Part shown: positions 5,072-58,003 of the stretch, one piece after another | Layout of the letters: the number at the start of each line of letters is the position of its first letter | Position numbering within the stretch: position 1 is the stretch's first letter | The notes under the pieces: model-generated | Databases searched by the model: none | Told to the model about the DNA's origin: nothing | Seen by the model: only the letters and a program-made list of their open reading frames with translations | Program-made: the position numbers and the translations under genes | Origin: a virus | Reading direction: 5' to 3' (one strand) | Length of the DNA: 60,204 bases | IMG/VR virus record: IMGVR_UViG_3300036944_000689 | Location: 1-60,204 of that record

Positions 5072-5113
5072 CCCCCAGTAGGGTTAGCGCCAAAGGGCGG
5101 GCGCCGGAACACT
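5072..5113 (+). promoter_or_regulatory. Copy 1 of the bipartite late motif (CCCCCAGTAGGGTT-N18-CCGGAACACT)
   Basis: Exact 14-mer at 5072-5085 and exact 10-mer at 5104-5113. ATG 5121 lies 7 nt after AACACT. Confidence 0.55.
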
Positions 5114-5120
5114 GCGGGGC

Positions 5121-5558
5121 ATGACGATCACGCCCGCCAGTCTCAACCTGCCCATCATCCAAGGCGCCACCTTTGATGAGGCGTTGGAGCGCAGCTTTTT
5201 CCCGTACGACACCGAATGGGTTTGCGGCCAGCTTGTCCGGGCCGACACGGGCGCGCCAGTCAATGAGGCTGACCGCGTGCTGGAGAACTACACAGGCTGC
5301 TCTGCGGAGGTGCAGCTGCGGCACCCTGAAACCAATGCGCTGATCAAGACACTCTCCACGGCCAATTCCGGCATTGTGCTTGATGCCAACACGCTGCGGC
5401 TGCTCATAAGCCACACCGACACCGCAGCGCTGGTGTACGGGGAAACAGCCCCGGCGTGGACGTATGCCGTTGGACACGTCGAAGTCACGCGCGCTGACGG
5501 CACCCGCGAGCGCCAATACTCGATCACCTTCCCTCTGAACCCGGAGCTGACGGTGTGA
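5121..5558 (+). CDS. Hypothetical tail-module protein, 145 aa
   Basis: Track ORF. Its stop overlaps the GTG/ATG region of the next gene. No SD before the ATG (candidate leaderless start). Confidence 0.6.
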
Positions 5559-10540: not shown

Positions 10541-10829
10541 ACAGGTATTCCTGGCGCTGGACCAGCTGGTCAACGCGCTGATTCCCCCGCTCGACGGCAC
10601 GATTAGCTACGCAGACGAAACCCTGTCAGCGCGCAGCTACCGCGCGTGGCGTGACGGAAAGATCCTGGGCAGGCTGACCATGAAGCCCATCAACCTGCTG
10701 TTCTTCTGGCAAGGCCCAGACCATTGCAAGAACGCCTACACCAAGGAGTTCGACCGCAAGAACTACCCGAGCGAGTACCACCCGCCCAACGGGCCGCGCT
10801 ACACATCGCGAAACAACGCCCCCCAGTAG
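10503..10829 (+). CDS. Hypothetical protein, 108 aa
   Basis: Internal ATG preceded by GAGGAGGAAG. Its TAG stop lies inside late-motif copy 2. Confidence 0.5.
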   Translation: MKRVFSLTRAYFEQVFLALDQLVNALIPPLDGTISYADETLSARSYRAWRDGKILGRLTMKPINLLFFWQGPDHCKNAYTKEFDRKNYPSEYHPPNGPRYTSRNNAPQ

Positions 10830-10862
10830 GGTTCGACCGCATGTTTCATGGCCCGGATCATC
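10820..10862 (+). promoter_or_regulatory. Copy 2 of the bipartite late motif (N19 spacing, CCGGATCATC variant)
   Basis: Exact 14-mer at 10820-10833. ATCATC at 10857-10862 is followed after 7 nt by ATG 10870. Confidence 0.5.
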
Positions 10863-10869
10863 CGGGCTC

Positions 10870-11181
10870 ATGGATCAAGCACAGACTCAAGGCGCCCCAG
10901 CGGCCCACTCGGAAGAAATCGCCGAGATCAAAGTGCGCCTCGATGCTGGTGATGCCCGCATGGGGCGTATCGAACAGGATCTTGCCGCGAACACAGCGGC
11001 CACCCAGCAGACGGCGGCCAGCACCGCCGAGCTGGTTGATCTATTCACTTCCTTCAAAGGCGCGTTCCGGGTGTTTGAGTACATCGGGCGGCTCGCCAAA
11101 CCCCTCGGGTACATCGTCGGGGCCTGCGCATCACTCGCGGCACTCTGGACGGCCTGGAAGTCTGGGGTGAACCCAAAATGA
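10870..11181 (+). CDS. Putative holin or lysis-cassette membrane protein, 103 aa
   Basis: Hydrophilic coiled N-terminus and a single C-terminal TM (PLGYIVGACASLAALWTAW). Directly upstream of, and ATGA-coupled to, the endolysin. Confidence 0.45.
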   Translation: MDQAQTQGAPAAHSEEIAEIKVRLDAGDARMGRIEQDLAANTAATQQTAASTAELVDLFTSFKGAFRVFEYIGRLAKPLGYIVGACASLAALWTAWKSGVNPK

Positions 11182-11726
11182 AAGAGGCGGTCCGCAAGGT
11201 CGTCATCAAGTTTGGCGTGCCGCTGGTGCTCGCCAGCTCAGGCCTTGCGACATTCCTGCACGACTGGGAAGCGGACAAGAAGCAGGCCACCAAGGTCTAC
11301 GCCGACCGGCTGGCGCGCGGCATCCCCACCGTCTGCGATGGCATCACTCCCGCAACCAGCCCTTACCCCGTCATCGTCGGTGACGTCTGGAGCCAGGAGC
11401 GGTGCGACGAAGTCAACCGCATGGTGGTCGAAAAGACCCAGCTCAAGCTGTTGGACTGCGTCAAAACCCGCATCAGCCAAAGCACCTTCGACGCCCTGAG
11501 CAGCCACGCGCACAACGTCGGTGTGGGCAACACCTGCGCCAGCAAGGCGCTGGGTCTGATCAATGCCGGGCGACTTGAAGAGGGCTGCCGCGCGCTGGCC
11601 TACACGCCATCCGGAGATCCCAACTGGTCGTTCGTGACCGAGAACGGCAAGGCCGTCTATGTACCGGGCCTGCACAACCGGCGTAAGGCTGAAATGGTCA
11701 TGTGCAGTCGAAAGGACTTGCTATGA
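11178..11726 (+). CDS. SAR-type endolysin, GH24 lysozyme family, 182 aa
   Basis: N-terminal weakly hydrophobic KFGVPLVLASSGLATFL. E-D-T pattern WEADKK..YADRL..PTVCDGIT. HNVGVGN and GLHNRRKAE resemble P21 R-type lysozymes. Confidence 0.85.
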   Translation: MKEAVRKVVIKFGVPLVLASSGLATFLHDWEADKKQATKVYADRLARGIPTVCDGITPATSPYPVIVGDVWSQERCDEVNRMVVEKTQLKLLDCVKTRISQSTFDALSSHAHNVGVGNTCASKALGLINAGRLEEGCRALAYTPSGDPNWSFVTENGKAVYVPGLHNRRKAEMVMCSRKDLL

Positions 11727-16270: not shown

Positions 16271-16274
16271 GTGC

Positions 16275-16500
16275 GGTGTGACAGGGCGGTTTTGTCACAC
16301 CGATTGTCACACCGGGAAGTGCTTTGATGTGCCAAAAGGTGTTTTCAGGTGGTTGCTGTCACACCACAAACGCATCATAAGATGTTGATCCGTAACGATA
16401 AATGCCGGATAGTGCCCGGTGGTTCAGGAGCTGTGTGGAAATTATAGGTTCGACGCATCTCCCTCTGTAGAAGGGCATCTGTCACACCGGGCGTCACACC
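16275..16500. promoter_or_regulatory. attP-like region with repeated 9-mers TGTCACACC (candidate integrase arm-type sites)
   Basis: TGTCACACC at 16293, 16305, 16357 and 16480. CGTCACACC at 16492. Inverted GGTGTGACA at 16275. They flank an AT-richer centre at 16366-16470. Confidence 0.5.
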
Positions 16501-19934: not shown

Positions 19935-20220
19935 CCTGTCCTCCTTTCATATCCGCCACGCCATGGGCGGCATGATCGCGTCCACACTTATTGCAGACGG
20001 TGCCGCACGCCGCAAGGTAGTCGCAGCCACGGCGCGGTATGCCGCGACATGTCTGATGCCACCCCACAAACCCAGCGAAGTCAACAAACCCCCGCTGAGG
20101 CTGTGTTCCATCCACTTGCCGCTCAAAGCAGACGCCGGTGATCCGATAGCCATTGGCCTGCAGCTCTGCCAGCTTGCGGTCTGCTACGCCGGTGAAGTCG
20201 GGGACTGTGGGGTTAGGCAT
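19906..20220 (-). CDS. Cys-rich hypothetical early protein, 104 aa
   Basis: Internal ATG overlapping the upstream stop. Contains CDYLAACGTVCNKCGRDH. Confidence 0.5.
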   Translation of the reverse strand: MPNPTVPDFTGVADRKLAELQANGYRITGVCFERQVDGTQPQRGFVDFAGFVGWHQTCRGIPRRGCDYLAACGTVCNKCGRDHAAHGVADMKGGQDGPASPPVL

Positions 20221-30835: not shown

Positions 30836-31105
30836 GTTTATCTCCATCAGATCAACAGGCGTCGTACCTGCTGATTTGATGCCCCTGTTGCCAAGGGCTC
30901 CGGTCTTTCTGTTCTTGGCGACCTAGCCTCACCGCCGTACAAATCCCAGCGTTGGATTTCGCAGTGCTGTGGGGCGCAGGCTTTACCCTGATTCCCGGCA
31001 AGTGGTCGTTTCCTTCCGCTTGCTCACATATCTCGTTCGCGTTGCCTGATCCCATCCAGGGGCAGAGCGCTACTAGCCTTCACACCGACGATCTTTTGTA
31101 GCCCG

Positions 31106-31210
31106 CTACCGCCTGCGGAGGCCCTGGTTTACCCAGCCGTGCCTGGCTGCAAGAACCTGTCGGTGCTCAGCTCGATCACTTGGCACCCGATGCCGCTTTG
31201 TTTGCGGCAT
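31106..31210 (-). CDS. Candidate 34-aa Arg/His-rich peptide, first ORF after the leftward early promoter
   Basis: Translated by hand: MPQTKRHRVPSDRAEHRQVLAARHGWVNQGLRRR. The ATG lies 6 nt after the -10-like AATAAT. No other support. Confidence 0.25.
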   Translation of the reverse strand: MPQTKRHRVPSDRAEHRQVLAARHGWVNQGLRRR

Positions 31211-31425: not shown

Positions 31426-31701
31426 ATGAAGGAACAACGAAAGAAGCTGCTTGGGGTTAGATTGAGGGCCGCGCGGATGGCGGCGGGCCAATCACAAGAT
31501 CACGTAGCGGGCGCCATTGGAGTTACGCGCCAGTCGGTTTCTGCTTGGGAAACTGGCGCAAGTTGCCCATCAGCTACGCAGCTTGCAGAGCTGTCGGCGC
31601 TGTATTGCGTGTGCGCCCACACCCTGCTGTTTGGAGAGGCCTACAAGCCTCTGAGCATCGCCGCCTTGATGCCGGGGCGTGTTGGCTTTCTTGTGGGCTG
31701 A
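31426..31701 (+). CDS. XRE-family HTH protein, 91 aa
   Basis: LGVRLRAARMAAGQSQDHVAGAIGVTRQSVSAWETG is an XRE-type HTH. Internal ATG of track ORF 31279..31701. Confidence 0.7.
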   Translation: MKEQRKKLLGVRLRAARMAAGQSQDHVAGAIGVTRQSVSAWETGASCPSATQLAELSALYCVCAHTLLFGEAYKPLSIAALMPGRVGFLVG

Positions 31702-31710
31702 GGTGGCCGC

Positions 31711-32010
31711 TCAGCCGCCGATCCGCAGCCGCCAGGCCTGGGCCACCCAGTCGCCTTCTTTGGTCCGCTCCATGCCGTGGATCTCCAGAGCGCCGGACAC
31801 CATGTCCACGATGCGGGGTTCAAACAAGCGTTGGGGGGTGAAGCAGTCCAGGTGCAGGGCAGGGACGGTGCCGAACCGGCCTTCAAGGCGCACGACGGTC
31901 AGATCCCCGGTGTGTTCGTGCACCTTGCTCGCAAACGGGTGCCTGCCGCCGCGCACGTAGAGCGTCAGGACCGTGGCTTTGATGGGGCTGGAGATGTGGA
32001 TGGGCGACAT
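31711..32010 (-). CDS. Hypothetical protein, 99 aa, preceded by a LexA box
   Basis: Track ORF. The ATG lies 3 nt downstream of a consensus SOS box. Confidence 0.55.
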   Translation of the reverse strand: MSPIHISSPIKATVLTLYVRGGRHPFASKVHEHTGDLTVVRLEGRFGTVPALHLDCFTPQRLFEPRIVDMVSGALEIHGMERTKEGDWVAQAWRLRIGG

Positions 32011-32013
32011 GTG

Positions 32014-32033
32014 TACTGTGGAAATTTACAGTA
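32014..32033. promoter_or_regulatory. Consensus LexA (SOS) box TACTGT-N8-ACAGTA
   Basis: TACTGTGGAAATTTACAGTA read directly. Both half sites are perfect for the proteobacterial CTGT-N8-ACAG consensus. Confidence 0.7.
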
Positions 32034-32227
32034 CATCGGGGCCGCCAGGGGTAACGCCCTAGCTGGGCGAGTGGGCAAAATCAGTACCCACAAAAGCAAG
32101 GGCCCCACCGAAGTGAGGCCCGATTTGTCGCTGCGGCGAATTGCAATCTTCTGTACGCAGAGGCCTTCCGAAGAAGGACTTGAGCCCGATGCTTTGTGGC
32201 AGAGCGGGTGACTGACATTGTAGAGAC

Positions 32228-32650
32228 CTAAAGGTGATCGGTCAAATGGCTTAACCCGATTCCGTTGAGCACACACGACATAACTGACGTGAGTTCACCA
32301 GATCCAAGGACGCGGATGTCTGATTGTCTTTTCCCGGATTGGTCTTTGCCCAACTGCGGAGCAAAGAGCCTGTAAAACCCTACGGTGTAAACCATGTCGC
32401 CCTTCACCCAGCACACCGGATCGTCATATGGAGCTGGCAATGGTGGCTCGATGCGCAGCTGTAGGTGATATGGGTACGTGTCGTCGGGCCGGGATGAGCT
32501 TAGAGGCACAACAGAAACCAGATTCCCCCTGTTTCTCAATCGTGGGGAAATCACCACGACAGGGCGCCGCTTGACCATCTCTGGTTCTTGCATCCCCTGG
32601 AAATCGCAGATCAATATCGTTCCTTGCTGCGGATGAAAATGGATCGCCAT
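32228..32650 (-). CDS. PemK/MazF-fold (YifN-like) toxin-family protein, 140 aa
   Basis: ATG preceded by AAAGGAGAGAGGG. N-terminus HFHPQQGTILICDF...PEMVKRRPVVVISP is characteristic of PemK/MazF-like proteins. Confidence 0.65.
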   Translation of the reverse strand: MAIHFHPQQGTILICDFQGMQEPEMVKRRPVVVISPRLRNRGNLVSVVPLSSSRPDDTYPYHLQLRIEPPLPAPYDDPVCWVKGDMVYTVGFYRLFAPQLGKDQSGKRQSDIRVLGSGELTSVMSCVLNGIGLSHLTDHL

Positions 32651-32956: not shown

Positions 32957-33517
32957 TCAGTGATTCACATCTGCCCGCCCCTTGCCCTTGGCTTTGCCGA
33001 CTGGCTTAGGAGCAGGTGCAATGGTTGGGGGCGGTGCGACGTGTGCCCATGGGTTTGCCTCGGACTTGACCGGCTTGACCACGTTGTGAAGTTTGTTCGC
33101 AAGCGCGAGCACCTCATCTTTCCCGTCAGCCGACAGGTCCCTGAAAAGCAGCACCAGATGCAACTCCAATCGATGGAGTGACGTTAGATCCATGGGTCCG
33201 CTTGGGCGGTCTTCCTGTACTTGGTCAGCAGTTGCTACACCAGCAAGCTCGGCCAGGGTGTTTGACAGCATCGGGCTGAAATCAGAGATCTTGCAGCCCA
33301 GTAGCTTGCTGAATTTCGCAGCGGCCGCGTTGTTCAGCGGGATGCGCCCGTTCAGGTACTGGCTCAAGGCGCTCTGCCCAAACCCTAACTGGTCAGCAGC
33401 CCATTCTTGGGAGTTCGGCTCGCCTCGACTTTTTCGGTCTGTCTTCCAGGCTTTAAACAAAGTCTGTAGGCGTTGTGCATCGGCCTTTTGCTCAGGCGAT
33501 AGGGGTTGGGCTGGCAT
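32957..33517 (-). CDS. CI-like repressor (XRE HTH N-terminus, no S24 peptidase C-terminus), 186 aa
   Basis: EWAADQLGFGQSALSQYLNGRIPLN is an HTH. Divergent from the Cro-like gene across the operators. The C-terminus lacks any Ser/Lys autocleavage motif. Confidence 0.75.
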   Translation of the reverse strand: MPAQPLSPEQKADAQRLQTLFKAWKTDRKSRGEPNSQEWAADQLGFGQSALSQYLNGRIPLNNAAAAKFSKLLGCKISDFSPMLSNTLAELAGVATADQVQEDRPSGPMDLTSLHRLELHLVLLFRDLSADGKDEVLALANKLHNVVKPVKSEANPWAHVAPPPTIAPAPKPVGKAKGKGRADVNH

Positions 33518-33531
33518 GGGCGGAGCGTATT

Positions 33532-33593
33532 AGTGCGACTACTTCGAATCAAACAGTCGGACTGTTGACATAAGAATCAGTCGGACTAATAAT
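33532..33593 (+). promoter_or_regulatory. Rightward early promoter with three operator-like 9-bp palindromes (OR/PR-like)
   Basis: AGTGCGACT at 33532, AGTCGGACT at 33555 and 33579 (centre spacing 23-24 bp). TTGACA at 33565-33570 and AATAAT at 33588-33593. Confidence 0.7.
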
Positions 33594-33599
33594 CGAGGC

Positions 33600-33845
33600 A
33601 TGCACAACCTCAAGACCATTCGCGAACGTCTCGACGTGACGCAGCAGACCCTGGCCGACGGTATCGGTTGCACCCAGGGGAATGTGGGCCACTACGAGCG
33701 CGGTCAAACCCTGCCGCCCGACATGGCGCGCAAGGTCATCGACTTCTGCGCTGCAAATGGACTGGTCATCACTTTCGATCACGTTTACGGCTCCGCCGAA
33801 CTGCCTTCCGTCGTCTCCGCCGAGCCGACAACCGCCCAGGCCTAA
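33600..33845 (+). CDS. Cro-like HTH protein, 81 aa
   Basis: LDVTQQTLADGIGCTQGNVGHYERG is an HTH. It is the first gene after the PR-like promoter. The ATG lies 6 nt after the -10. Confidence 0.75.
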   Translation: MHNLKTIRERLDVTQQTLADGIGCTQGNVGHYERGQTLPPDMARKVIDFCAANGLVITFDHVYGSAELPSVVSAEPTTAQA

Positions 33846-41695: not shown

Positions 41696-41776
41696 TGCCA
41701 CAAAAAGGAAAGCCACCCGAAGGTGGCGATCCCGGACTTTCTGGTCCTGAGCAAATCAGATTTTACCGGGAGATTG

Positions 41777-42271
41777 ATGATGACCGACAAGAACCTCAGT
41801 GAAAAGCGCAGCAGCCGTGTGCAGGTGCTGGAAGCTGTGCACGCCTTGAACGATCAAGAGATGGAGATCAACGTGTCCGCGCTGGTCCGCCACACCGGAT
41901 TGAAGGTAGTCACGGTGAACGACTGCATCAAGGAGTTGAAGGAGCGTGGGGACATTTTTTCACCAGCCCGGGGAATCTACAAACCCAGCCTGCGACATGA
42001 GCCGAGCGAGGCCGTCAGCCTGACAGCCCTGCCAACCGGCCATGTGAAGTTGGAGAAGGGCGACACCGTGATGGAGTTCACCCCGCATGAGTGGCGGCTG
42101 CAGGTGGCGCCGTTTGCGGCTGGGGCATCCGCGCAGACGGCGGTGATTGAGGCCACGCACCACACGCTGCAGCTGCTGGAGCAGGTCCGCAAGCTCCAGC
42201 GCCAGGTGGACGGGCTGCGCACGGTCATCGCAACGAATCCGGCGCAACTGGCGCTGTTGGAGGCGGCATGA
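41777..42271 (+). CDS. Winged-helix protein with a C-terminal coiled coil, 164 aa
   Basis: VLEAVHALNDQEMEINVSALVRHTGLKVVTVNDCIKELKERGDI. Internal Met of track ORF 41723..42271. Confidence 0.55.
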   Translation: MMTDKNLSEKRSSRVQVLEAVHALNDQEMEINVSALVRHTGLKVVTVNDCIKELKERGDIFSPARGIYKPSLRHEPSEAVSLTALPTGHVKLEKGDTVMEFTPHEWRLQVAPFAAGASAQTAVIEATHHTLQLLEQVRKLQRQVDGLRTVIATNPAQLALLEAA

Positions 42272-42910: not shown

Positions 42911-43384
42911 ATGACGCAAGACGAAGTGAACGACGAAAAAACCGAGTCTGCTGAAAATGCAAGGATTGAGCCGGTTCAAGGCGGGGTTGTGATCTGGGAT
43001 TCCATAAGCCACATGATGAACGAAACCGCAGAACAAGCCGCCCGCGACATGCTTGAACGCATGGGCATCGAAGACGCTCAGAGCATCACAACCGTGGATC
43101 TCATGGAGCTGACAAACCTCATCGCCGCGAGCAAGAAGGCAACTCCACCCCAAGAATGGGAGCCCCTGACGCCTGAGCGGCTGGAGAAGCTCAATCGATC
43201 CCGCTCAGAGGAACCCGCCACGTACTGGGTGGCAGCCAATGGCCAGCATCATGGAGAAAAGCCATATCTCGGCACTTACTCGTATTTCGACCAAGTGTTT
43301 TACTGCGACGACGAGCGAGCGATTCATGCATCTAACGTCACTCACATCATGGCCGTATACATCCCCGAGTTGCCAAAGGCTTGA
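42911..43384 (+). CDS. Hypothetical protein, 157 aa
   Basis: SD AAAGGAG. The C-terminus VTHIMAVYIPELP is faintly DUF551-like. Confidence 0.55.
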   Translation: MTQDEVNDEKTESAENARIEPVQGGVVIWDSISHMMNETAEQAARDMLERMGIEDAQSITTVDLMELTNLIAASKKATPPQEWEPLTPERLEKLNRSRSEEPATYWVAANGQHHGEKPYLGTYSYFDQVFYCDDERAIHASNVTHIMAVYIPELPKA

Positions 43385-43532
43385 CACCACCGCAGAGCGC
43401 GGCATCATGTTTTGTGCACGATAGACGGCGGCGGCGGTTTCCGGAACTACCCCTTACCGAGACAACCCAGAGCCCGGGGCGCGCGCCTTGAGTCGTAGCA
43501 CAGAATGCTGCGGCAAGGGACTCTCGAAATAT

Positions 43533-43608
43533 CGCGGTGTAGCTCAGATAGTAGAGCGCCGGGTTCATACCCCGAAAGTCGAGGATGCGAGCGCCTCCAC
43601 CGCAACCA
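43533..43608 (+). tRNA. tRNA-Met (anticodon CAT) with initiator-like features and a non-canonical T arm
   Basis: 76-nt cloverleaf folded by hand. C1-A72 mismatch. Three G-C pairs closing the anticodon stem. Loop TTCATAC. T loop TGCGAGC with A53-G61. Encoded ACCA end. Confidence 0.7.
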
Positions 43609-43612
43609 TCAA

Positions 43613-43688
43613 GTATCGGTAGCTCAACTGGCAGAGCGCTGGTCTCCAAAACCAGAGGTTGTAGGTTCGAGGCCTACCCGGTATGCCA
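43613..43688 (+). tRNA. tRNA-Trp (anticodon CCA)
   Basis: 76-nt cloverleaf. Acceptor GTATCGG/CCGGTAT with two G-U pairs. Anticodon loop CTCCAAA. T arm GTAGG-TTCGAGG-CCTAC. Encoded GCCA end. Confidence 0.8.
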
Positions 43689-43803: not shown

Positions 43804-43812
43804 CACACCAAG

Positions 43813-43838
43813 GCCGCCTACTGGGGCGGCTTTTCTTT
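43813..43838 (+). terminator. Intrinsic terminator after the tRNA cluster
   Basis: GCCGCC-TACTGG-GGCGGC followed by TTTTCTTT. Confidence 0.8.
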
Positions 43839-43840
43839 GC

Positions 43841-43882
43841 CCCCCAGTAGGGTTCGATCAGAAAGTCCATTCCCGGAACACT
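43841..43882 (+). promoter_or_regulatory. Copy 3 of the bipartite late motif, heading the packaging/head genes
   Basis: Exact 14-mer at 43841-43854, N18, exact CCGGAACACT at 43873-43882. ATG 43890 lies 7 nt after AACACT. Confidence 0.6.
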
Positions 43883-43889
43883 CCGGGCC

Positions 43890-44516
43890 ATGGCAAAGAA
43901 ACCGGCTGGAAAACCTGCCACCCCAAGCAAAACGACACCTGCGGCCTCAAAGAAGGGGCGCTCTACTGGTGCGCGCGTGGATGGTTTGCTGCCTAAACAG
44001 GCCAAGTTTGTAGCGGAATACCTAATATCCGGAAATGCCACGCAAGCCGCTCTGGCTGCGGGTTACAGCCCCAAGACCGCCCATGTGATCGGGCAGGAAA
44101 ACTTGAAGAAACCTGTAATCGCAAGTCTTTTGCAGGTAAAGAACACCGAAATCGCCGCGCGCCAGGATGAACGCCTCGCCGCGATGGAGTTGACCAAGGA
44201 GCGCGTGCAGCGCGAGATCGCCCGGATCGCCTTCTTCGACGCCCGCAAGATGTTTGGCCCGGACGGCACGCCACTGGCTATCACCGAGCTGGACGACGAC
44301 ACCGCCGCCTGCATCGTGGGCCTGGATGTGTTGGAAGAGTGGCAAGGCACTGGCGAAGCCCGGGTGCTGGTCGGCCACGTCAAGAAGTACAAGATCGCCA
44401 ACAAGAATGTGGCGCTGGATCAGGCTTCCAAGATCCTGGGGATGTACGAGAAGGACAACGAGCAGACCAAGCCAAACGTCCGCGTGGTGGTTGTTCCAGC
44501 GAAGGACGCATCGTGA
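43890..44516 (+). CDS. terS: Terminase small subunit, 208 aa
   Basis: LPKQAKFVAEYLISGNATQAALAAGYSPKTAHVIGQENLKKP is the typical Terminase_2-type HTH region. Confidence 0.9.
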   Translation: MAKKPAGKPATPSKTTPAASKKGRSTGARVDGLLPKQAKFVAEYLISGNATQAALAAGYSPKTAHVIGQENLKKPVIASLLQVKNTEIAARQDERLAAMELTKERVQREIARIAFFDARKMFGPDGTPLAITELDDDTAACIVGLDVLEEWQGTGEARVLVGHVKKYKIANKNVALDQASKILGMYEKDNEQTKPNVRVVVVPAKDAS

Positions 44517-48694: not shown

Positions 48695-49726
48695 ATGAAC
48701 CCCTTGCTCAAGATGATGATGGCCCGCGTGATGGCTCCCGCTGGCGAAGATGGCACCGACACCGGTGGAACAGACACGTCTGTGGTGGATCGCGGCGATG
48801 TGGTTGACCCTGCTCTGACCGCAGACAACCTGGCATCGCTGGTCGAGGCCAATGACGATGGCTTCGGAGATGCAGACCCCAACGCAGGCGAGCAGGACGA
48901 CCAGGCGGCTGGAGAAGGCCAAGGCGGCGCAGATGATGCTGCTGGCGAACACGGGCGCCCCGCCGCCACTGGCATCCCCAAGGGCCGCTTCAACGAAGTG
49001 AATCAGCAGCGCAAAGACGCGCTGGCCGCGCTGGCCGCCGCCAATGAAGAGATCGCTCGCCTGAAGGGGACGAAGCCAGACGCTGCGAGCCCAACACCTG
49101 CACCGGCGCCAGCTGCGAAAGCACCAGCCCCTGCAACTGCCGCCGCAGCACCAGCCGGTGAATTCGACGTCGAGGCCCAGGAAGAAGCCTATGTTGCCGC
49201 CCTGATGGAGGGTGACACGAAGGGCGCTGTCGCCATCCGCCGCCAGATCAATGCGTTCCTCCAGGACCAGGCATCAGCCCGAGCAACCCAGGAACTGACG
49301 GCCAGACAGTCCGCGCAGCTGCTGAAGACCACCGCCGAAAGCGTGTCGGCTGCCTACCCATGGTTGAACACTCCGGAAGGCGCAGACACGCTGGAACTGA
49401 TCCTGGCTGCGCGCGACCGCAAGATCGCAAACGGCATGCCTCCACACCTGGCACTGGCCGACGCAGCGAACACTATTGCCCCGAAATTCGCCCCTGAAGG
49501 TGAGACGCCCCCCAGTAGGGTTTCTGCAAATGGCGAACCTGCGAAAGACTCACGTCCAGCAGCAGCACTAGCCCGTGGTGCAGCGGATTCAACCGCTCAA
49601 CCACCGGCATTGCAGGCTGGTATCGGGCAGCGGGCAACCGCCGCACGCGTGAACGTAAGTCAGATGACCGAGGAGCAATTCGAGGCGCTGACACCGGCTG
49701 AGAAGAAACGCCTACGCGGCGATTGA
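48695..49726 (+). CDS. Scaffolding protein, 343 aa
   Basis: Acidic N-terminus, Ala/Pro-rich linker and helical C-terminus. Lies immediately before the capsid gene. Confidence 0.7.
   Translation: MNPLLKMMMARVMAPAGEDGTDTGGTDTSVVDRGDVVDPALTADNLASLVEANDDGFGDADPNAGEQDDQAAGEGQGGADDAAGEHGRPAATGIPKGRFNEVNQQRKDALAALAAANEEIARLKGTKPDAASPTPAPAPAAKAPAPATAAAAPAGEFDVEAQEEAYVAALMEGDTKGAVAIRRQINAFLQDQASARATQELTARQSAQLLKTTAESVSAAYPWLNTPEGADTLELILAARDRKIANGMPPHLALADAANTIAPKFAPEGETPPSRVSANGEPAKDSRPAAALARGAADSTAQPPALQAGIGQRATAARVNVSQMTEEQFEALTPAEKKRLRGD
49509..49550 (+). promoter_or_regulatory. Copy 4 of the bipartite late motif, located inside the scaffold ORF
   Basis: Exact 14-mer at 49509-49522, N18, then GCGAAAGACT (7/10 match). 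Confidence 0.35.
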
Positions 49727-49886
49727 CGCTCAGGGCCAGCGGGAGACCACCCGCCTGCTGGCCATCCTCTCCAGGGTGATTTCGTCCACACGGCAGGACG
49801 TTAAACGGCCAGGCGCTCTTGACCGCCTCGTAGTCATGTTTCTCGCATTGGCAGCGCACGCCTTAGTCCGTAACCAATCAAGGAGC

Positions 49887-50996
49887 ATGGCTATGAGCCT
49901 GACCAATTTTGCGGCCCTGACGCCGCAGCAAAAACTTGTCTGGTCTCGCGATGTGTGGTCCGCCGCACGCGACCAGATGTTCGTCAAGCGTTTCCTGGGC
50001 ACCGGCCAGAACGCAATGATCCAGCGCATCACCGAGCTGACCAAGACTGAAAAGGGCGAGCAGGTCATCATGCATCTGGTGGCCGACCTGGTCCAAGACG
50101 GCGTGATCGGTGACAACGAGCGCGAAGGCAACGAGGAATCGATGCAGTCGTACTCGCAGATCATCACCATCGATCAGCTCACCCACAGCGTGCGCAACAA
50201 GGGCAAGCTGGCTGATCAGAAGACGGTGATCAACTTCCGCGAAATGGGCAAGGACCGCCTTGCTTACTGGCTGGCCAATCGCACCGACCAACTGACGTTC
50301 CTGACGCTGTCCGGCATCAGCTACGCCTTCCAGAACAACGGCGCGGCCCGCGTTGGCTCCCAATTCCCCAACCTGGCATTCGCCGCCGATGTGTCCGCAC
50401 CTTCGGCCAAGCGCTCGCTGATGTGGGACGGTACGTCGCTGGCTGTCTCCGCCACCGGCAGCATCACCACCGGCTACGTGCCCAGCTACAAGATGATCGT
50501 GGATCTCATCGCCTACGCGAAAGAGAACTACGTCAAGCCTCTGATGGAAGGCGGCAAGGAGTATTACGTGCTCCTGGTGGCCCCTGGCACGCTGGCGGCC
50601 CTGAAGAAGGATGCCGACTACCAGCGAGCAGTGGTGGCTGTTGCCACGAAGTCCGGCGCGGATTCGCCATGGTTCACCGGCGCAACCGTGACCGTTGACG
50701 GTGCCGTGATCCACGAGCACCGCCTGGTCTACACCACCAAGGGCGCCGCATCGGGCTCGAAGTGGGGTTCTGGCGGCCTGGTGAACGGCACCCGCACGCT
50801 GCTGTGCGGCGCTCAGGCACTGGGCATGGCCGACCTTGGCCCCGCCGAATGGGATGAGAAGACATTCCAGTACGGCAGCCAGCAGGGCATCAACATCGAC
50901 AAGATGTTTGGTCTCCTGAAGCCCAAGTTCTACAGCATCTACAACGGGTCCGTCGAGGACTTCGGCGTGGTGTCCGTGGATCACTACCTGCAATAA
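49887..50996 (+). CDS. Major capsid protein, 369 aa
   Basis: SD AAGGAGC. Supported by size and position after the scaffold. The N-terminus LTPQQKLVWSRDVWSAARDQMFVKRFLG resembles N4 gp56-type capsid proteins as remembered. Confidence 0.8.
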   Translation: MAMSLTNFAALTPQQKLVWSRDVWSAARDQMFVKRFLGTGQNAMIQRITELTKTEKGEQVIMHLVADLVQDGVIGDNEREGNEESMQSYSQIITIDQLTHSVRNKGKLADQKTVINFREMGKDRLAYWLANRTDQLTFLTLSGISYAFQNNGAARVGSQFPNLAFAADVSAPSAKRSLMWDGTSLAVSATGSITTGYVPSYKMIVDLIAYAKENYVKPLMEGGKEYYVLLVAPGTLAALKKDADYQRAVVAVATKSGADSPWFTGATVTVDGAVIHEHRLVYTTKGAASGSKWGSGGLVNGTRTLLCGAQALGMADLGPAEWDEKTFQYGSQQGINIDKMFGLLKPKFYSIYNGSVEDFGVVSVDHYLQ

Positions 50997-52594: not shown

Positions 52595-52636
52595 CCCCCA
52601 GTAGGGTTCGACCAACCCCATCCCAATCGGGAGACT
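52595..52636 (+). promoter_or_regulatory. Copy 5 of the bipartite late motif
   Basis: Exact 14-mer at 52595-52608, N18, then TCGGGAGACT (7/10 match). Confidence 0.45.
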
Positions 52637-52666
52637 TGGCGGCAAGACACCCCGAAAGGCTCACCG

Positions 52667-55060
52667 ATGTACGGCTACCAGCCACCGGCAGCGCGCCGTC
52701 TCGCGCAAACCCCTGAACAATACGCAGACGGCGGCCTGGTTGCGCGCATGAAAAGCGCCGATGCCGGGCCTGCTGCGTTTGGCTCGCGTGGCCTGAGCCA
52801 GTTGCGCGACATGGTGCCCAAGGTGGCCTCGATGGGCTACCCGCAGCAAGCCGCAGCGCCTGCTCCAGCCCCTGCCCCTGTATCCGACCCACGCGCATCC
52901 CAGTTGATGGCCATGATCCCGCAGATGGAGGCTATGGGGTTCAAGCAGAAGCCGCAGATGCTCGCCCGTGGTGGCATGGTGCGCGGACCCGGCACCGGCA
53001 CCAGCGACAGCATCGCCACCGAAGCCGAGCCCGGCACGTACATCATGCCCGCCGACTCCACGGCCGCAATCGGCCCGAGCGCGCTGGAGAAGATGGGCAC
53101 AGTCCCTGTGCGCCTGAGCGACGGCGAGTTTGAGTTTCCACCCGAACAGGTGATGGCCATTGGCGCTGCCGTGCTCAAGCTCATGAAAGACGCCACGCAC
53201 ACCCCTGTGAATGGTGAAGACGGCGGGCAGACTGACGCCGAAGTCGAGGATGACGACGACGATGAAAAAGGCGCCCGTGGCTTCAACCCGGCCGACCGCA
53301 TGGCCGAGATGCCCCAGATGTTCGCAGACGGTGGAATGGTGGACCCGAACCGCCCACGCAGCTTTGGAGATGCCGCAGCCGCTGCGCAAGATCCTGGTGT
53401 GACGCAGATTGGCGCAGGCTACCAGCCCGCCAATGGAACCATGAGCGTTGTCCCGGCGCAGCCTCGGCCAGCGCTCGGAGTGACCTCGACCCCCGTGCAA
53501 CCGTCTTCGACGCCCGTCAATGTGGCGAACCCAGCATGGCAGCGCATGGCGGCCGCGCCCAGCCCTGCAGCTCCCGCCCAGGCCCCCATGGGCTGGCAGG
53601 CCCGCCAGGATCAGCGCAGTCTGGAAGTGACCGCCAGTTCGATCATGGACAGCCCAGAGCGCCGCGCCGCGCAGCAACGATTGGGCACGATGCCAGCAGC
53701 CGGGTTCCAGCCGCGCCGGTATGCGGATGGCGGCATGGTCGAAGACGACCTGCAAAAGCGCCTGATGCAGATCCCATCAAGCGCCCCTGCTGGCTGGAAT
53801 GGCGGCGGAGCCAATTCTGGTGGTGCAACCGGCAGCTGGGAGGCGCCACAGGCCGCACCCGCCACGACGCAACCCGCTGGTGCCCTGACTCGCGCCGCAT
53901 CCATGTCTGCCCCCGCTCCCGCAGCTCAGGCCATGGGGACGTTGCCAAACAACGCTGTCACGCGCACCGGCAACAGCTACACCGGCCCCGCGAACATCAG
54001 CGGCGACATCACGGTAAACGGCCAGACGCCGGGCGGTGGCGCGATCAGCGCGCAGAACATGGGCGCAGCTGACTCCCTGGCGCGCCGTGGTGCTGCTGAC
54101 GCAATGGCCTCGATGCCGAATGCTCCGGCGCCAGTGCAGGCGCCTACCATTCGCACCAGCGCGAACGACTGGCAGGCGCGCAAGGACTTGGAGAACGCCG
54201 CCACATCGGCAGCGAGCATCACCAACAACGGCGGCCGGTTTGACCCGACAGGTGGCAAGAACCCCGCCGCTCTGGCCTACCGTGCCGCACTGGAAACCGA
54301 CAACGCCTTGCGCGCCAGCGCCCCGGGCCTCGCTCAGCAGGCCATGCGCGAACAAGGCGACACCCAGCGCGCAGGACTGCAGGTGACTGCCAGCGGCTTG
54401 AATGCAGCGGCCGACCGCCAAAACGCATTGGAGCGCACGCTGATTGGCGAGCGCGGCGCAAACGCGCGGGCCGGGCTGTCTGCTGCGGCGACGCTGGATG
54501 CGGCAAAGGTCAGGGCCGGAGCTGGTGCGAACAAGCCATTGAACGACGTGCAAAGCAAGGCGCTGCAGTTCGGCACGCGGATGCAGGCAGCAGGCTCTGT
54601 GCTGGATGGCCTTGCCTCCAAGGGTGTGGACCAGCCCGGCCTGATCAAGCGCGCCGCCGACGCCGTTGGCATGGGAGGCGCAGCAAACTGGACTCAGAGC
54701 GGCGAACAACAGCAGGTTGAACAAGCCCAACGCGATTTCATCAACGCCGTGCTGCGCCGCGAGTCTGGTGCTGCGATTGCTGACAGCGAGTTCTCCAACG
54801 CGCGCCAGCAGTATTTCCCGCAGGTTGGCGACAGCCCCGAGGTAATCGCCCAGAAGCGCAAGAACCGCGAGATTGCCACGGCTGGCGTCCTGGCAGAAGT
54901 GCCTGATAGCGAAACCCGTGTGAACCAGGTGATGGCCACAGCGAACGGGAACAGTCAGGCCCCGCAGGGCTTGCCATCGGGCATGTCCCGGCAAGTCGGA
55001 ACATCAGGCGGCCGCCCAGTCTACGAAGACGCGCAGGGCAATCGATTCATTGGAGGCTGA
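52667..55060 (+). CDS. Large Ala/Gly/Pro-rich virion (internal/ejection-like) protein, 797 aa
   Basis: Track ORF. Repeated (Y/F/L)A(D/R)GG(M/L)V motif four times. GPGTGTSDSI...SDGEFEFP segment. Confidence 0.7.
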   Translation: MYGYQPPAARRLAQTPEQYADGGLVARMKSADAGPAAFGSRGLSQLRDMVPKVASMGYPQQAAAPAPAPAPVSDPRASQLMAMIPQMEAMGFKQKPQMLARGGMVRGPGTGTSDSIATEAEPGTYIMPADSTAAIGPSALEKMGTVPVRLSDGEFEFPPEQVMAIGAAVLKLMKDATHTPVNGEDGGQTDAEVEDDDDDEKGARGFNPADRMAEMPQMFADGGMVDPNRPRSFGDAAAAAQDPGVTQIGAGYQPANGTMSVVPAQPRPALGVTSTPVQPSSTPVNVANPAWQRMAAAPSPAAPAQAPMGWQARQDQRSLEVTASSIMDSPERRAAQQRLGTMPAAGFQPRRYADGGMVEDDLQKRLMQIPSSAPAGWNGGGANSGGATGSWEAPQAAPATTQPAGALTRAASMSAPAPAAQAMGTLPNNAVTRTGNSYTGPANISGDITVNGQTPGGGAISAQNMGAADSLARRGAADAMASMPNAPAPVQAPTIRTSANDWQARKDLENAATSAASITNNGGRFDPTGGKNPAALAYRAALETDNALRASAPGLAQQAMREQGDTQRAGLQVTASGLNAAADRQNALERTLIGERGANARAGLSAAATLDAAKVRAGAGANKPLNDVQSKALQFGTRMQAAGSVLDGLASKGVDQPGLIKRAADAVGMGGAANWTQSGEQQQVEQAQRDFINAVLRRESGAAIADSEFSNARQQYFPQVGDSPEVIAQKRKNREIATAGVLAEVPDSETRVNQVMATANGNSQAPQGLPSGMSRQVGTSGGRPVYEDAQGNRFIGG

Positions 55061-57076: not shown

Positions 57077-57095
57077 TTTCAGCCGCATCAACACA

Positions 57096-57118
57096 GGCCC
57101 GCTTCGGCGGGCTTTTTT
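57096..57118 (+). terminator. Intrinsic terminator
   Basis: GGCCCGC-TTCG-GCGGGCT followed by TTTTTT. Confidence 0.85.
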
Positions 57119-57122
57119 GCGC

Positions 57123-57164
57123 CCCCCAGTAGGGTTCGCTCCTTTCCCCCATCCCCGGAACACT
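57123..57164 (+). promoter_or_regulatory. Copy 6 of the bipartite late motif, heading the tail genes
   Basis: Exact 14-mer at 57123-57136, N18, exact CCGGAACACT at 57155-57164. Lies directly after the terminator. Confidence 0.55.
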
Positions 57165-57196
57165 GCAAGCCATCCACCTTGCAGGAGCCTCCGGCT

Positions 57197-58003
57197 ATGG
57201 CCAATACCGCATACCCCAAGGGGGCTCAGAAGATTCTGGGCGCCTCGATTGACTTCATCGACGACACCATCAAGGCGTGTCTGCTGCCCAACACCTACAC
57301 ATTCAGCACCGCGCATGAATTCGTGGCTGATCTTGGCACGCGCATCGGCACCGACCAGACGCTGGCGAGCAAGTCGATTACCGGGGGCGTGCTGGATGCC
57401 GACAACCTGGACTACGGCGCTCTGGCCCCTGGCAGCACGGTAAAGGCACTGGTGATCTACAAGGACACCGGGAACACCTCGACGGCTCCAGTCCTGTTCT
57501 ATTTCGACACCGTGGCCGGGTTCCCCTTTGCCACGAATGGCGGTGCGCTGACCATCCCCTGGGATGACGGCGTCAAGAAGATCGCCCGCATCACCACGCC
57601 GTTCTATCCCTTGGGCGCGCAGAAGGTGCTGGCAGGCGAGATCAATTTCAGCTCGGACACGCTCAAGGTCGTGGCCTTGCCGACCAGCTACGTTTACGAC
57701 GGCGCCCACGAATTCCTGGATGACATCGCGGCGGTAATTGGCACGGCGCAGACGCTGACCAGCAAGACCATTGCGGACGGTGTGTTTGATGCCGCCGACC
57801 CCAGTTTTGGCGCCATCGCATCGGGTTCGACCATCGGATCGCTGTTGATCTACAAGGACACCGGCACGGCGGGCACTTCGCCTCTCCTGCTGCGCCTGAC
57901 TGCTGACAACGCCGTTGGCCTGCCGCTGTCCACGAATGGCTTTGCCATCTCGCACCAGTGGCCTAACGGCTCCGCAAAGATTTTCAGCCTGATCCCGGCG
58001 TAA
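57197..58003 (+). CDS. Tail-module protein built from two tandem homologous halves, 268 aa
   Basis: SD GCAGGAGCC. YPKGAQKILGASIDFIDDTIK... and YPLGAQKVLAGEINFSSDTLK... align along about 130 aa each. Confidence 0.7.
   Translation: MANTAYPKGAQKILGASIDFIDDTIKACLLPNTYTFSTAHEFVADLGTRIGTDQTLASKSITGGVLDADNLDYGALAPGSTVKALVIYKDTGNTSTAPVLFYFDTVAGFPFATNGGALTIPWDDGVKKIARITTPFYPLGAQKVLAGEINFSSDTLKVVALPTSYVYDGAHEFLDDIAAVIGTAQTLTSKTIADGVFDAADPSFGAIASGSTIGSLLIYKDTGTAGTSPLLLRLTADNAVGLPLSTNGFAISHQWPNGSAKIFSLIPA

Follow-up and report, generated by a model that had tools for sequence, protein, structure and literature searches.

How does a phage of proteobacterial hosts translate the first genes of its operons when their start codons follow promoter-like hexamers at once and carry no Shine-Dalgarno sequence (SD)? 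This question is raised by the cro-like gene at 33600-33845 and by several other operon heads of IMG/VR virus record IMGVR_UViG_3300036944_000689, whose full 60,204-nucleotide stretch we analysed and call the window. The window is a ~60-kb temperate phage with a host of Comamonadaceae type (Acidovorax and relatives). Leaderless mRNAs are treated as rare curiosities in Proteobacteria, and the leaderless lambda cI mRNA from PRM is the textbook case. A preliminary description, made from the letters alone, had proposed that first cistrons in this phage are translated from leaderless or near-leaderless mRNAs as a genome-wide design. We find that the start geometry it noticed is confirmed and lies far beyond chance, and that it most plausibly combines leaderless early heads with an activator-dependent family of late promoters, half of them leaderless. 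We give this explanation as a whole a probability of roughly 0.68; leaderless expression at these operon heads, with start points placed by sequence geometry, is likely.

Start geometry at cro, cI and PL

On re-reading, the hexamer and ATG coordinates described earlier were right at all six sites (PR, PL, cI and three late sites). The early elements are as follows.

33565-33593, + strand: PR, with TTGACA at 33565-70, a spacer of 17 nucleotides (nt) and AATAAT at 33588-93
33600-33845, + strand: cro-like helix-turn-helix (HTH) gene, with Pfam HTH_3 from residue 4
32957-33517, - strand: cI-like repressor gene, ATG 33517, no SD
31245-31217, - strand: PL, with TTGACA at 31245-40, 17 nt and AATAAT at 31222-17
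31210-31190, - strand: 5' hairpin of PL, ATGCCGC-aaacaaa-GCGGCAT, which begins at the predicted +1

PR and PL are the only 11-of-12 matches to the sigma-70 consensus in the 18 kb scanned. The cro ATG at 33600 follows the PR AATAAT after 6 nt (cgaggc), which puts its A at the expected +1, and the sole purine run before it, GAGG, sits 1 nt from the ATG, too close to work as an SD. Two CAGTCGGACT operator copies flank or overlap PR (33554-63 and 33578-87). As a near-consensus host sigma-70 promoter, PR would fire at the cro AUG. On the minus strand, a PRM-like TAATAC (33532-33527) is followed by 9 nt (gctccgccc) and the cI ATG 33517, with the operator covering the -35 region; this weak promoter under the operator may fire at, or just before, the cI AUG.

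The ATGs of cro, cI and three late heads described below (33600, 33517, 5121, 10870 and 43890) are each the earliest possible start of their own open reading frame (ORF). Duplexes with the anti-SD sequence reach ~-3.2 to -3.7 kcal/mol at 5121, 10870 and 33600, leaving no usable SD, and the SD was judged absent by eye at 33517 and 43890, so that the earlier statement on these heads holds. Its companion, that most internal genes carry AGGAG-like sites, applies to roughly two thirds of genes and not to nearly all: in 48 of 76 crude gene calls an anti-SD duplex of -5 kcal/mol or stronger forms at the best candidate start. From the -10 or -10-like element to the ATG there are 6 nt at cro, 7, 8 and 7 nt at the late heads, and 9 nt at cI, in keeping with the ~6-8 nt expected of bacterial leaderless mRNAs (GeneMarkS-2 group C). 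Sequence comparison supports leaderless or near-leaderless first cistrons well at five of the six sites (cro, cI, terS, 10870 and 5121), and they fail at PL. We read the five as leaderless because the -10-to-ATG distance is fixed at 5-9 nt, because the start codon is almost always ATG with a C preferred at -1, and because copies of the same promoter have an SD where there is a leader and none where there is no leader.

Megablast of window positions 30-38 kb against phage genomes gave no match, and a search for related loci with the cI protein found none. Relatives at the cro position were recovered via the replication helicase, and their immunity regions are unrelated to that of the window. 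About 13 of them, with unrelated operators and hexamers, keep a -10, 5-9 nt, an ATG and no SD at the first rightward HTH gene. Seven of these loci read as follows, and the same geometry is found in L220, L226, L235, L239, L243 and L254.

L219: TTGACT-17-TAAAGT, 6 nt to ATG
L224: TTGCCA-17-TAAATT, 6 nt to ATG
L225: TTGTCA-17-TATGAT, 7 nt to ATG
L229: TTGCGC-17-TAAGAT, 8 nt to ATG
L231: TTGACG-18-TATGAT, 5 nt to ATG
L233: TTGCGC-17-CATAAT, 6 nt to ATG
L237: TTGACA-17-TAAAGT, 7 nt to ATG

The trait is not universal, since the cro gene of the Pseudomonas aeruginosa phage PA8 has a leader with GGAG.

PL has the same geometry and a different meaning. It repeats the roughly 40-bp block of PR, both CAGTCGGACT operator copies included, and its AATAAT is followed by tcaccc (6 nt) and ATG 31210, which had been listed as an operon head. 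The 34-codon arginine-rich ORF that opens at this ATG loses its frame through a 2-nt indel in a comparison with L219 and L226, and the hairpin ATGCCGCAAACAAAGCGGCAT and the bases after it stay conserved there despite differing PL hexamers and operators: both loci keep (T/A)CACCC-ATGCCGCAAACAAAGCGGCA plus the following CCAAGYGATCGAGC. Because the hairpin is conserved and the peptide frame is broken, the PL ATG is not a cistron start, and a 34-residue N-like protein was rejected for the same non-conserved frame. At -11 kcal/mol (z -4.2) the hairpin is strong, and the 375-nt leader from PL to the first SD-preceded gene (30836-31210, minus strand) folds with z -3.0. On this sequence pattern, the PL geometry marks a transcription start whose ATG belongs to a 5'-terminal RNA element, so that the predicted +1 would open a conserved hairpin and a long structured leader rather than a cistron. 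A nut- or put-like role, or that of a 5' stabiliser, is possible; the loop has 7 nt, as against the GNRA-like pentaloop of the N/nut boxB, Rfam gave no match, and neither a boxA nor an N homologue came to light, though no search aimed at them was made.

A bipartite late promoter family and its candidate activator

The late hexamers noticed earlier are promoter-like, yet they are not free-standing sigma-70 elements: aligned, they form the downstream half of bipartite sites made of a 13-mer, CCCCAGTAGGGTT, then 20 nt, cGGAAcACT, ~7 nt and a conserved CA. The 13-mer, in which the dyad CCCC-NN-TAGGGTT can be read, occurs exactly at 5073, 10821, 43842, 49510, 52596 and 57124, all six copies on the plus strand, and a motif scan allowing two mismatches found 7 sites against ~1 expected by chance. 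The late region holds one sigma-70 consensus promoter where ~5.5 would be expected.

43842-43892, + strand: terS late promoter, leaderless type; 13-mer 43842-54, 20 nt, GGAACACT 43875-82, 7 nt, ATG 43890
5073-5123, + strand: late promoter of gene 5121, leaderless type; 13-mer 5073-85, GGAACACT 5106-13, 7 nt, ATG 5121
10821-10872, + strand: late promoter of gene 10870, leaderless type; 13-mer 10821-33, GGATCAT 10855-61, 8 nt, ATG 10870
52596-52669, + strand: late promoter, leadered type; 13-mer, GGGAGACT 52629-36, CA 52643-44, ~23-nt leader with GAAAGG, ATG 52667
57124-57199, + strand: late promoter, leadered type; 13-mer, GGAACACT 57157-64, CA 57171-72, ~25-nt leader with AGGAG, ATG 57197
49510-49550, + strand: late promoter, long leader; 13-mer, GAAAGACT 49543-50

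The three leaderless-type copies head late operons. The gene at 43890-44516 (+) is the Terminase_2 small terminase terS, with AACACT at 43877-43882, 7 nt before its ATG; gene 5121, with AACACT at 5108-5113 and again 7 nt, encodes 145 amino acids (aa) and precedes a collagen-like fibre gene in the tail-fibre operon; and gene 10870, in holin position directly 5' of the lysozyme gene 11178-11726, encodes 103 aa with a C-terminal transmembrane segment. At the last of these, ATCATC at 10857-10862 with 7 nt to the ATG was correctly described, while the family alignment prefers GATCAT at 10856-10861 with 8 nt. An independent gene caller placed the same terS start on one metagenomic contig, and tblastn alignments of relatives to gene 5121 and to terS start from the first residue. 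The conserved CA is that of C-ATG in the three leaderless copies, and the leadered copies keep it at the same predicted +1, with an SD at normal distance from the ATG at 52596 and 57124. A genome-wide leaderless design is thus contradicted, three of the six late promoters (49510, 52596 and 57124) having leaders, two of them with an ordinary SD. Intrinsic terminators lie just 5' of the 43842 promoter (43810-43838) and of the 57124 promoter (57095-57120); both were missed by a terminator scan and confirmed by folding. The 49510 copy lies within the 3' end of ORF 48695-49726, ahead of a 406-aa gene ending at 50996, to which its leader runs for >200 nt (window 49510-49893); long conserved leaders after promoters of this kind also occur in L278, L282, L277 and PA8.

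We searched public collections of viruses and genomes with the motif and removed duplicates. Many related phage contigs came from the viral sets, while the genome set yielded prophages in Acidovorax facilis DSM 649, on contig NZ_JAMXAX010000009.1, and in Acidovorax metagenome-assembled genomes (MAGs), Comamonadaceae, Variovorax, Hydrogenophaga, Caballeronia and a Neisseriales MAG. Across 57 distinct promoters the start codon lies 5-9 nt past the final T of the -10-like element, with a peak at 7 nt, and is ATG in 53, most exceptions being mis-assignments. Together with the roughly 13 cro-position loci, these promoters bear out the comparison of start-site geometry in relatives that the preliminary description had suggested as a check. 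Distances among clear family members are bimodal, with 5-9 nt and no SD on one side and 22-32 nt with AGGAG or GAAAGG on the other; we found no convincing member with a 10-21-nt leader among the deduplicated promoters, and the other matches in the leadered class have longer leaders or are chance matches. Of 53 leaderless-type promoters, 52 have 20 nt between 13-mer and 8-mer, 47-49 keep the GG flanking the -10-like element, and 40 have a C directly before the ATG, C(-1)/A(+1) being the usual transcription-start preference. The invariance of A(-11) and T(-7) is no evidence, since the search filter required both. Anti-SD duplexes at these starts average ~-3.3 kcal/mol.

With the A of the ATG taken as +1, the 13-mer spans ~-48 to -36 and ends 22 nt before the -10 hexamer (52 of 53), which sets the centre of the dyad near -42, the position of a class II activator site. 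Sites of that class are centred near -41.5 and overlap the -35 position of promoters with a poor -35 and a recognisable -10, and on this numbering the late promoters agree. We propose that the weak extended -10, cGGAAcACT, lying exactly 20 bp past the dyad, would be used with an activator bound at the dyad, and that the polymerase would start at the A of the start codon or 1-2 nt ahead of it. At terS, the holin-position gene and the tail-fibre operon, where the ATG stands 7-8 nt past the -10, this would give leaderless mRNAs translated without an SD; the other three promoters would give leadered mRNAs, two with an ordinary SD on leaders of ~23-25 nt and the 49510 one with a long leader.

A candidate for the activator lies just upstream of terS.

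41780-42271, + strand: candidate late activator, 163 aa, phrog_8117

Its ORF spans 41723-42271, with the real start at ~41780. An AlphaFold model of the 41780-42271 protein (pLDDT 76.6) combines a winged helix with a small beta unit and a coiled-coil helix of 50 residues, and Pfam gave only sub-threshold MarR_2 and DUF977 matches, with no Mor/C-type domain. Thirteen divergent promoter-bearing loci carry a homologue (~30% identity) 5' of their terS promoter, and a search that started from the protein found the dyad downstream on the same strand in 10 of 11 loci. In most of these loci the first promoter past the activator gene belongs to the leaderless type, with GTG in one; some are leadered or have no nearby copy. 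As the protein diverges, the centre of the dyad shifts (AG, GC, TC, TG, TA, TTG):

CCCCAGTAGGGTT: protein 97% identical to that of the window
CCCGCGTAGGGTT: 72% identical
CCCCTCTAGGGTT: 71% identical
CCCCTGTAGGGTT: proteins 53% and 38% identical
CCCCTATAGGGTT, with a perfect 10-bp palindrome: 49% identical
CCCTTGTAGGGTT: 40% identical

Homologues with 34% identity are found in cultured P. aeruginosa Hollowayvirus (F116-like) phages. PA8 (NC_073672.1, L284-L286) carries its homologue, gp20, just before terS, whose promoter reads CCCCTGTAAGGTT, 20 nt, GGACAATT, 7 nt, ATG, with the same kind of hairpin as described below; this phage has three late promoter copies in all (record positions 20061, 14945 and 61246, minus strand), and of these the one at terS alone belongs to the leaderless type. 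Close to the immunity region of PA8 lies a gene for a CsrA-like translational regulator. From this synteny and co-variation, the most likely ligand of the dyad is the winged-helix protein 41780-42271 of the phage itself, which would bind as a dimer and, as a class II activator, take the place of a -35 element. Pfam matched no Q or antiterminator family in any of 10 ORFs scanned in the 38.8-43.4 kb interval.

Hairpins over the -10-like element and competing explanations

Leaderless-type late promoters carry an inverted repeat whose arms flank the -10-like element and whose 3' arm ends 0-2 nt before the ATG in most copies. Stems differ by operon (CCCGGA/TCCGGG, which is that of terS, CCCTGCAG/CTGCAGGG and CACGGAA/TTCCGTG) and show compensatory changes, e.g., CACGGAA/TTCCGTG versus CACGGGA/TCCCGTG. 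The leaderless-type copies fold at a mean of -9.5 kcal/mol (z -2.0 against shuffled sequences, n=49) and the leadered copies at -3.9 kcal/mol (z +0.3, n=15), a difference with a Mann-Whitney p of ~2e-5 for sequences that are not independent; hairpins of -8 kcal/mol or stronger occur in 33 of 49 of the former and 1 of 15 of the latter. The window has them at 5090-5120, 10847-10872 and 43872-43887, and the one at 10870 (-17.1 kcal/mol, z -4.7) would pair the AUG itself in read-through RNA. A palindrome for a dimeric protein was rejected by eye as the cause, since the arms differ between operons, which points to a structure and not to a binding site.

A transcript that begins at the AUG cannot contain this hairpin, which must therefore act on read-through RNA or on DNA, unless the start lies upstream. 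We favour, from the sequence pattern, a hairpin that masks the AUG on read-through RNA, because GGAAcACT and its spacing are equally conserved where there is no hairpin, because ATG, the missing SD and C(-1) are what a start at the AUG predicts, and because the early leaderless genes, which have no co-directional transcription upstream, lack such hairpins. More tentatively, translation of the heads of terS, the lysis cassette and the tail operon might be gated by their own promoters, the activator setting the start on the AUG and the hairpin masking the same AUG on read-through RNA; we regard this extension as possible, though less likely than not.

Several points weigh against the explanation we prefer. 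Start sites are placed from sequence in the window phage and in the relatives alike, the family counts are not phylogenetically independent, and the activator is assigned purely by synteny and co-variation, with Foldseek returning only generic winged-helix regulators for the 41780-42271 protein. An RNA hairpin selected over the -10-like element must be transcribed from upstream, whether by read-through or from an upstream start, and the invariant TAGGGT of the dyad, which fits TAnnnT, could itself be a -10 and place the start ~28 nt before the ATG. Frequent leaderless transcription has, moreover, been predicted in only 5.6% of proteobacterial genomes (PMC6028130).

Some of these points lead to a different account, in which the late start lies just 3' of the 13-mer, with TAGGGT as the -10 or a phage factor recognising the whole block, and the transcribed GGAAcACT is the loop of a regulatory hairpin or, as at lambdoid PR', a sigma-70-dependent pause signal; translation from the ATG directly behind the hairpin would then proceed without an SD, by another route. 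The invariance of TAGGGT in all lineages fits such a short structured leader, as do hairpins that keep compensatory changes with different stems per operon and are more stable than shuffled controls (mean z ~-2). However, GGAAcACT and the exact 20-nt spacing are kept in leadered promoters that have no hairpin, and the element thus behaves as DNA and not as an RNA loop. An SD-less start codon flush against a stable hairpin would translate very poorly, no conservation is seen at the would-be -35 for TAGGGT, and the near-exclusive ATG, the C at -1, the 5-9-nt window and the SD/no-SD split are left unexplained; a Q-like arrangement also sits badly with six dispersed copies and no Q-family Pfam match among the ORFs scanned. 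We consider a short structured leader unlikely. Still less probable is that a nuclease cuts read-through RNA at the 3' foot of the hairpin and leaves monophosphate 5' ends at the AUG: the ending of the 3' arm 0-2 nt from the AUG and the co-directional late operons, which make read-through plausible, agree with such processing, yet it accounts neither for a conserved bipartite DNA motif at fixed spacing nor for the terminators just before two of the promoters, stems of 5-10 bp are too short for RNase III, and we know of no such hairpin-foot cleavage pathway. That the hexamers are chance matches and the true starts or SDs lie elsewhere is hardly credible and is already contradicted by the comparative data; AACACT and ATCATC are indeed poor matches to TATAAT, and about one third of window genes have no clear SD anyway, but no earlier start is possible in the ORFs of these ATGs, the geometry recurs in the 57 promoters and the cro-position genes on many contigs, and Pfam domains and alignments to relatives start at the N-termini.

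Other promoter types were set aside. Read as an extracytoplasmic-function sigma promoter with GGAAC as its -35, the motif would have its -10 in non-conserved coding sequence, and a sigma-54 promoter would lack a TTGC element and start inside the gene (both by eye). A promoter for a T7-type single-subunit RNA polymerase does not agree with a bipartite motif of sigma-70-like spacing, and no ORF with a fitting size or annotation was seen among those inspected by eye; an N4-type hairpin promoter was rejected as no giant virion RNA polymerase gene was seen by eye.

Neighbouring features, known systems and significance

The immunity region holds further features. Within 32008-32033 (minus strand), a perfect LexA-type box, TACTGTAAATTTCCACAGTA, stands 3 nt 5' of the SD-less ATG 32010 of a near-leaderless ORF (31711-32010, minus strand; 99 aa, no Pfam match); judging from the box, this gene looks directly SOS-controlled and is possibly an antirepressor. 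A sigma-70-like TTGACC-17-TACAAT (32245-32217, minus strand) is followed ~100 nt on by a strong intrinsic terminator with a T run (32121-32100), with an ORF-free stretch between them, and this arrangement (32090-32245, minus strand), next to the immunity region, resembles a gene for a small RNA. An XRE-family HTH gene with a normal SD (31426-31701, plus strand) separates PL from the LexA-boxed gene, runs opposite to PL and may be a second regulator or a moron. Elsewhere, GGTGTGACA occurs twice in direct and once in inverted orientation (TGTCACACC) at 16271-16315 (minus strand), directly 5' of a 346-aa gene whose ATG, 16270, has no SD. Upstream of the terS promoter, Rfam matched two tRNAs (43533-43605 and 43613-43685), its only matches in the scan, and ARAGORN called tRNA-Trp only; the tRNAs are preceded by a sigma-70-like TTGACA-16-CATCAT (43381-43408) and followed by the terminator that stands before terS.

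Leaderless expression in itself is not new. Rapid amplification of cDNA ends (RACE) places the 5' ends of the cI and cro mRNAs of Yersinia phage PY54 at the AUG (PMC4488713), and the window resembles PY54 and lambda PRM in having switch promoters set directly against an AUG without an SD and an operator over the -35 of a weak cI promoter. It differs in that the leaderless cro geometry recurs across many immunity types and that heads of late structural and lysis operons take part; starts are predicted here from sequence, whereas those of PY54 are RACE-mapped. Thermus phage phiYS40 makes most of its middle and late mRNAs without a leader (Sevostyanova et al. 2007, as summarised in PMC3594737). 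To the extent of that summary, the likeness lies in late genes expressed from mRNAs that begin at the start codon, as is proposed here, and in promoters that are mainly a -10 element; unlike phiYS40, whose Deinococcus-Thermus host has leaderless mRNAs as the norm, the phages here have proteobacterial hosts, only half of the late promoters are leaderless and an upstream dyad appears to be needed.

As in class II promoters (lambda cI at PRM, CRP/FNR, Mu Mor/C), the site abuts or overlaps the missing -35, is centred near -42 and accompanies a weak -10, and as in phage Mu the late genes are split among several promoter copies with one shared site; unlike those examples, the candidate activator belongs to an uncharacterised winged-helix and coiled-coil family with no Mor/C, Ogr or Q domain, and the site sequence is new. 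The lambdoid Q/PR' system is similar in having the regulator gene at the end of a nin-like region just before terS and a -10-like element 3' of a conserved block. It differs in having one promoter instead of six, in its Q protein, for which no counterpart was found in the 38.8-43.4 kb scan, in terminators 3' instead of 5' of the promoter, and in that genes here begin directly after the element. A literature search for the motif string returned only unrelated primer matches, and one for leaderless expression in Acidovorax or Comamonadaceae returned nothing relevant. New are the late promoter with its putative activator family, the hairpin that abuts the AUG and, for phages of Proteobacteria, the predicted leaderless heads of the terS, lysis and tail operons.

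The undescribed late promoter and its probable activator can aid the annotation of many prophages in Acidovorax, other Comamonadaceae and Pseudomonas (F116-like), in which starts may be misplaced by gene callers built around an SD. The same promoter with and without a leader offers a natural matched set for studying leaderless initiation, and the AUG-abutting hairpin, confined to the leaderless-type promoters, could be tackled in cultured P. aeruginosa phages. If promoter-gated translation were true, first cistrons would be translated only from RNAs of their own late promoter, which would insulate the phage against making terminase or holin too soon from early read-through. And if our explanation is right, a whole phage lineage would have leaderless cro, packaging, lysis and tail heads, which would mean that these hosts translate leaderless mRNAs efficiently.

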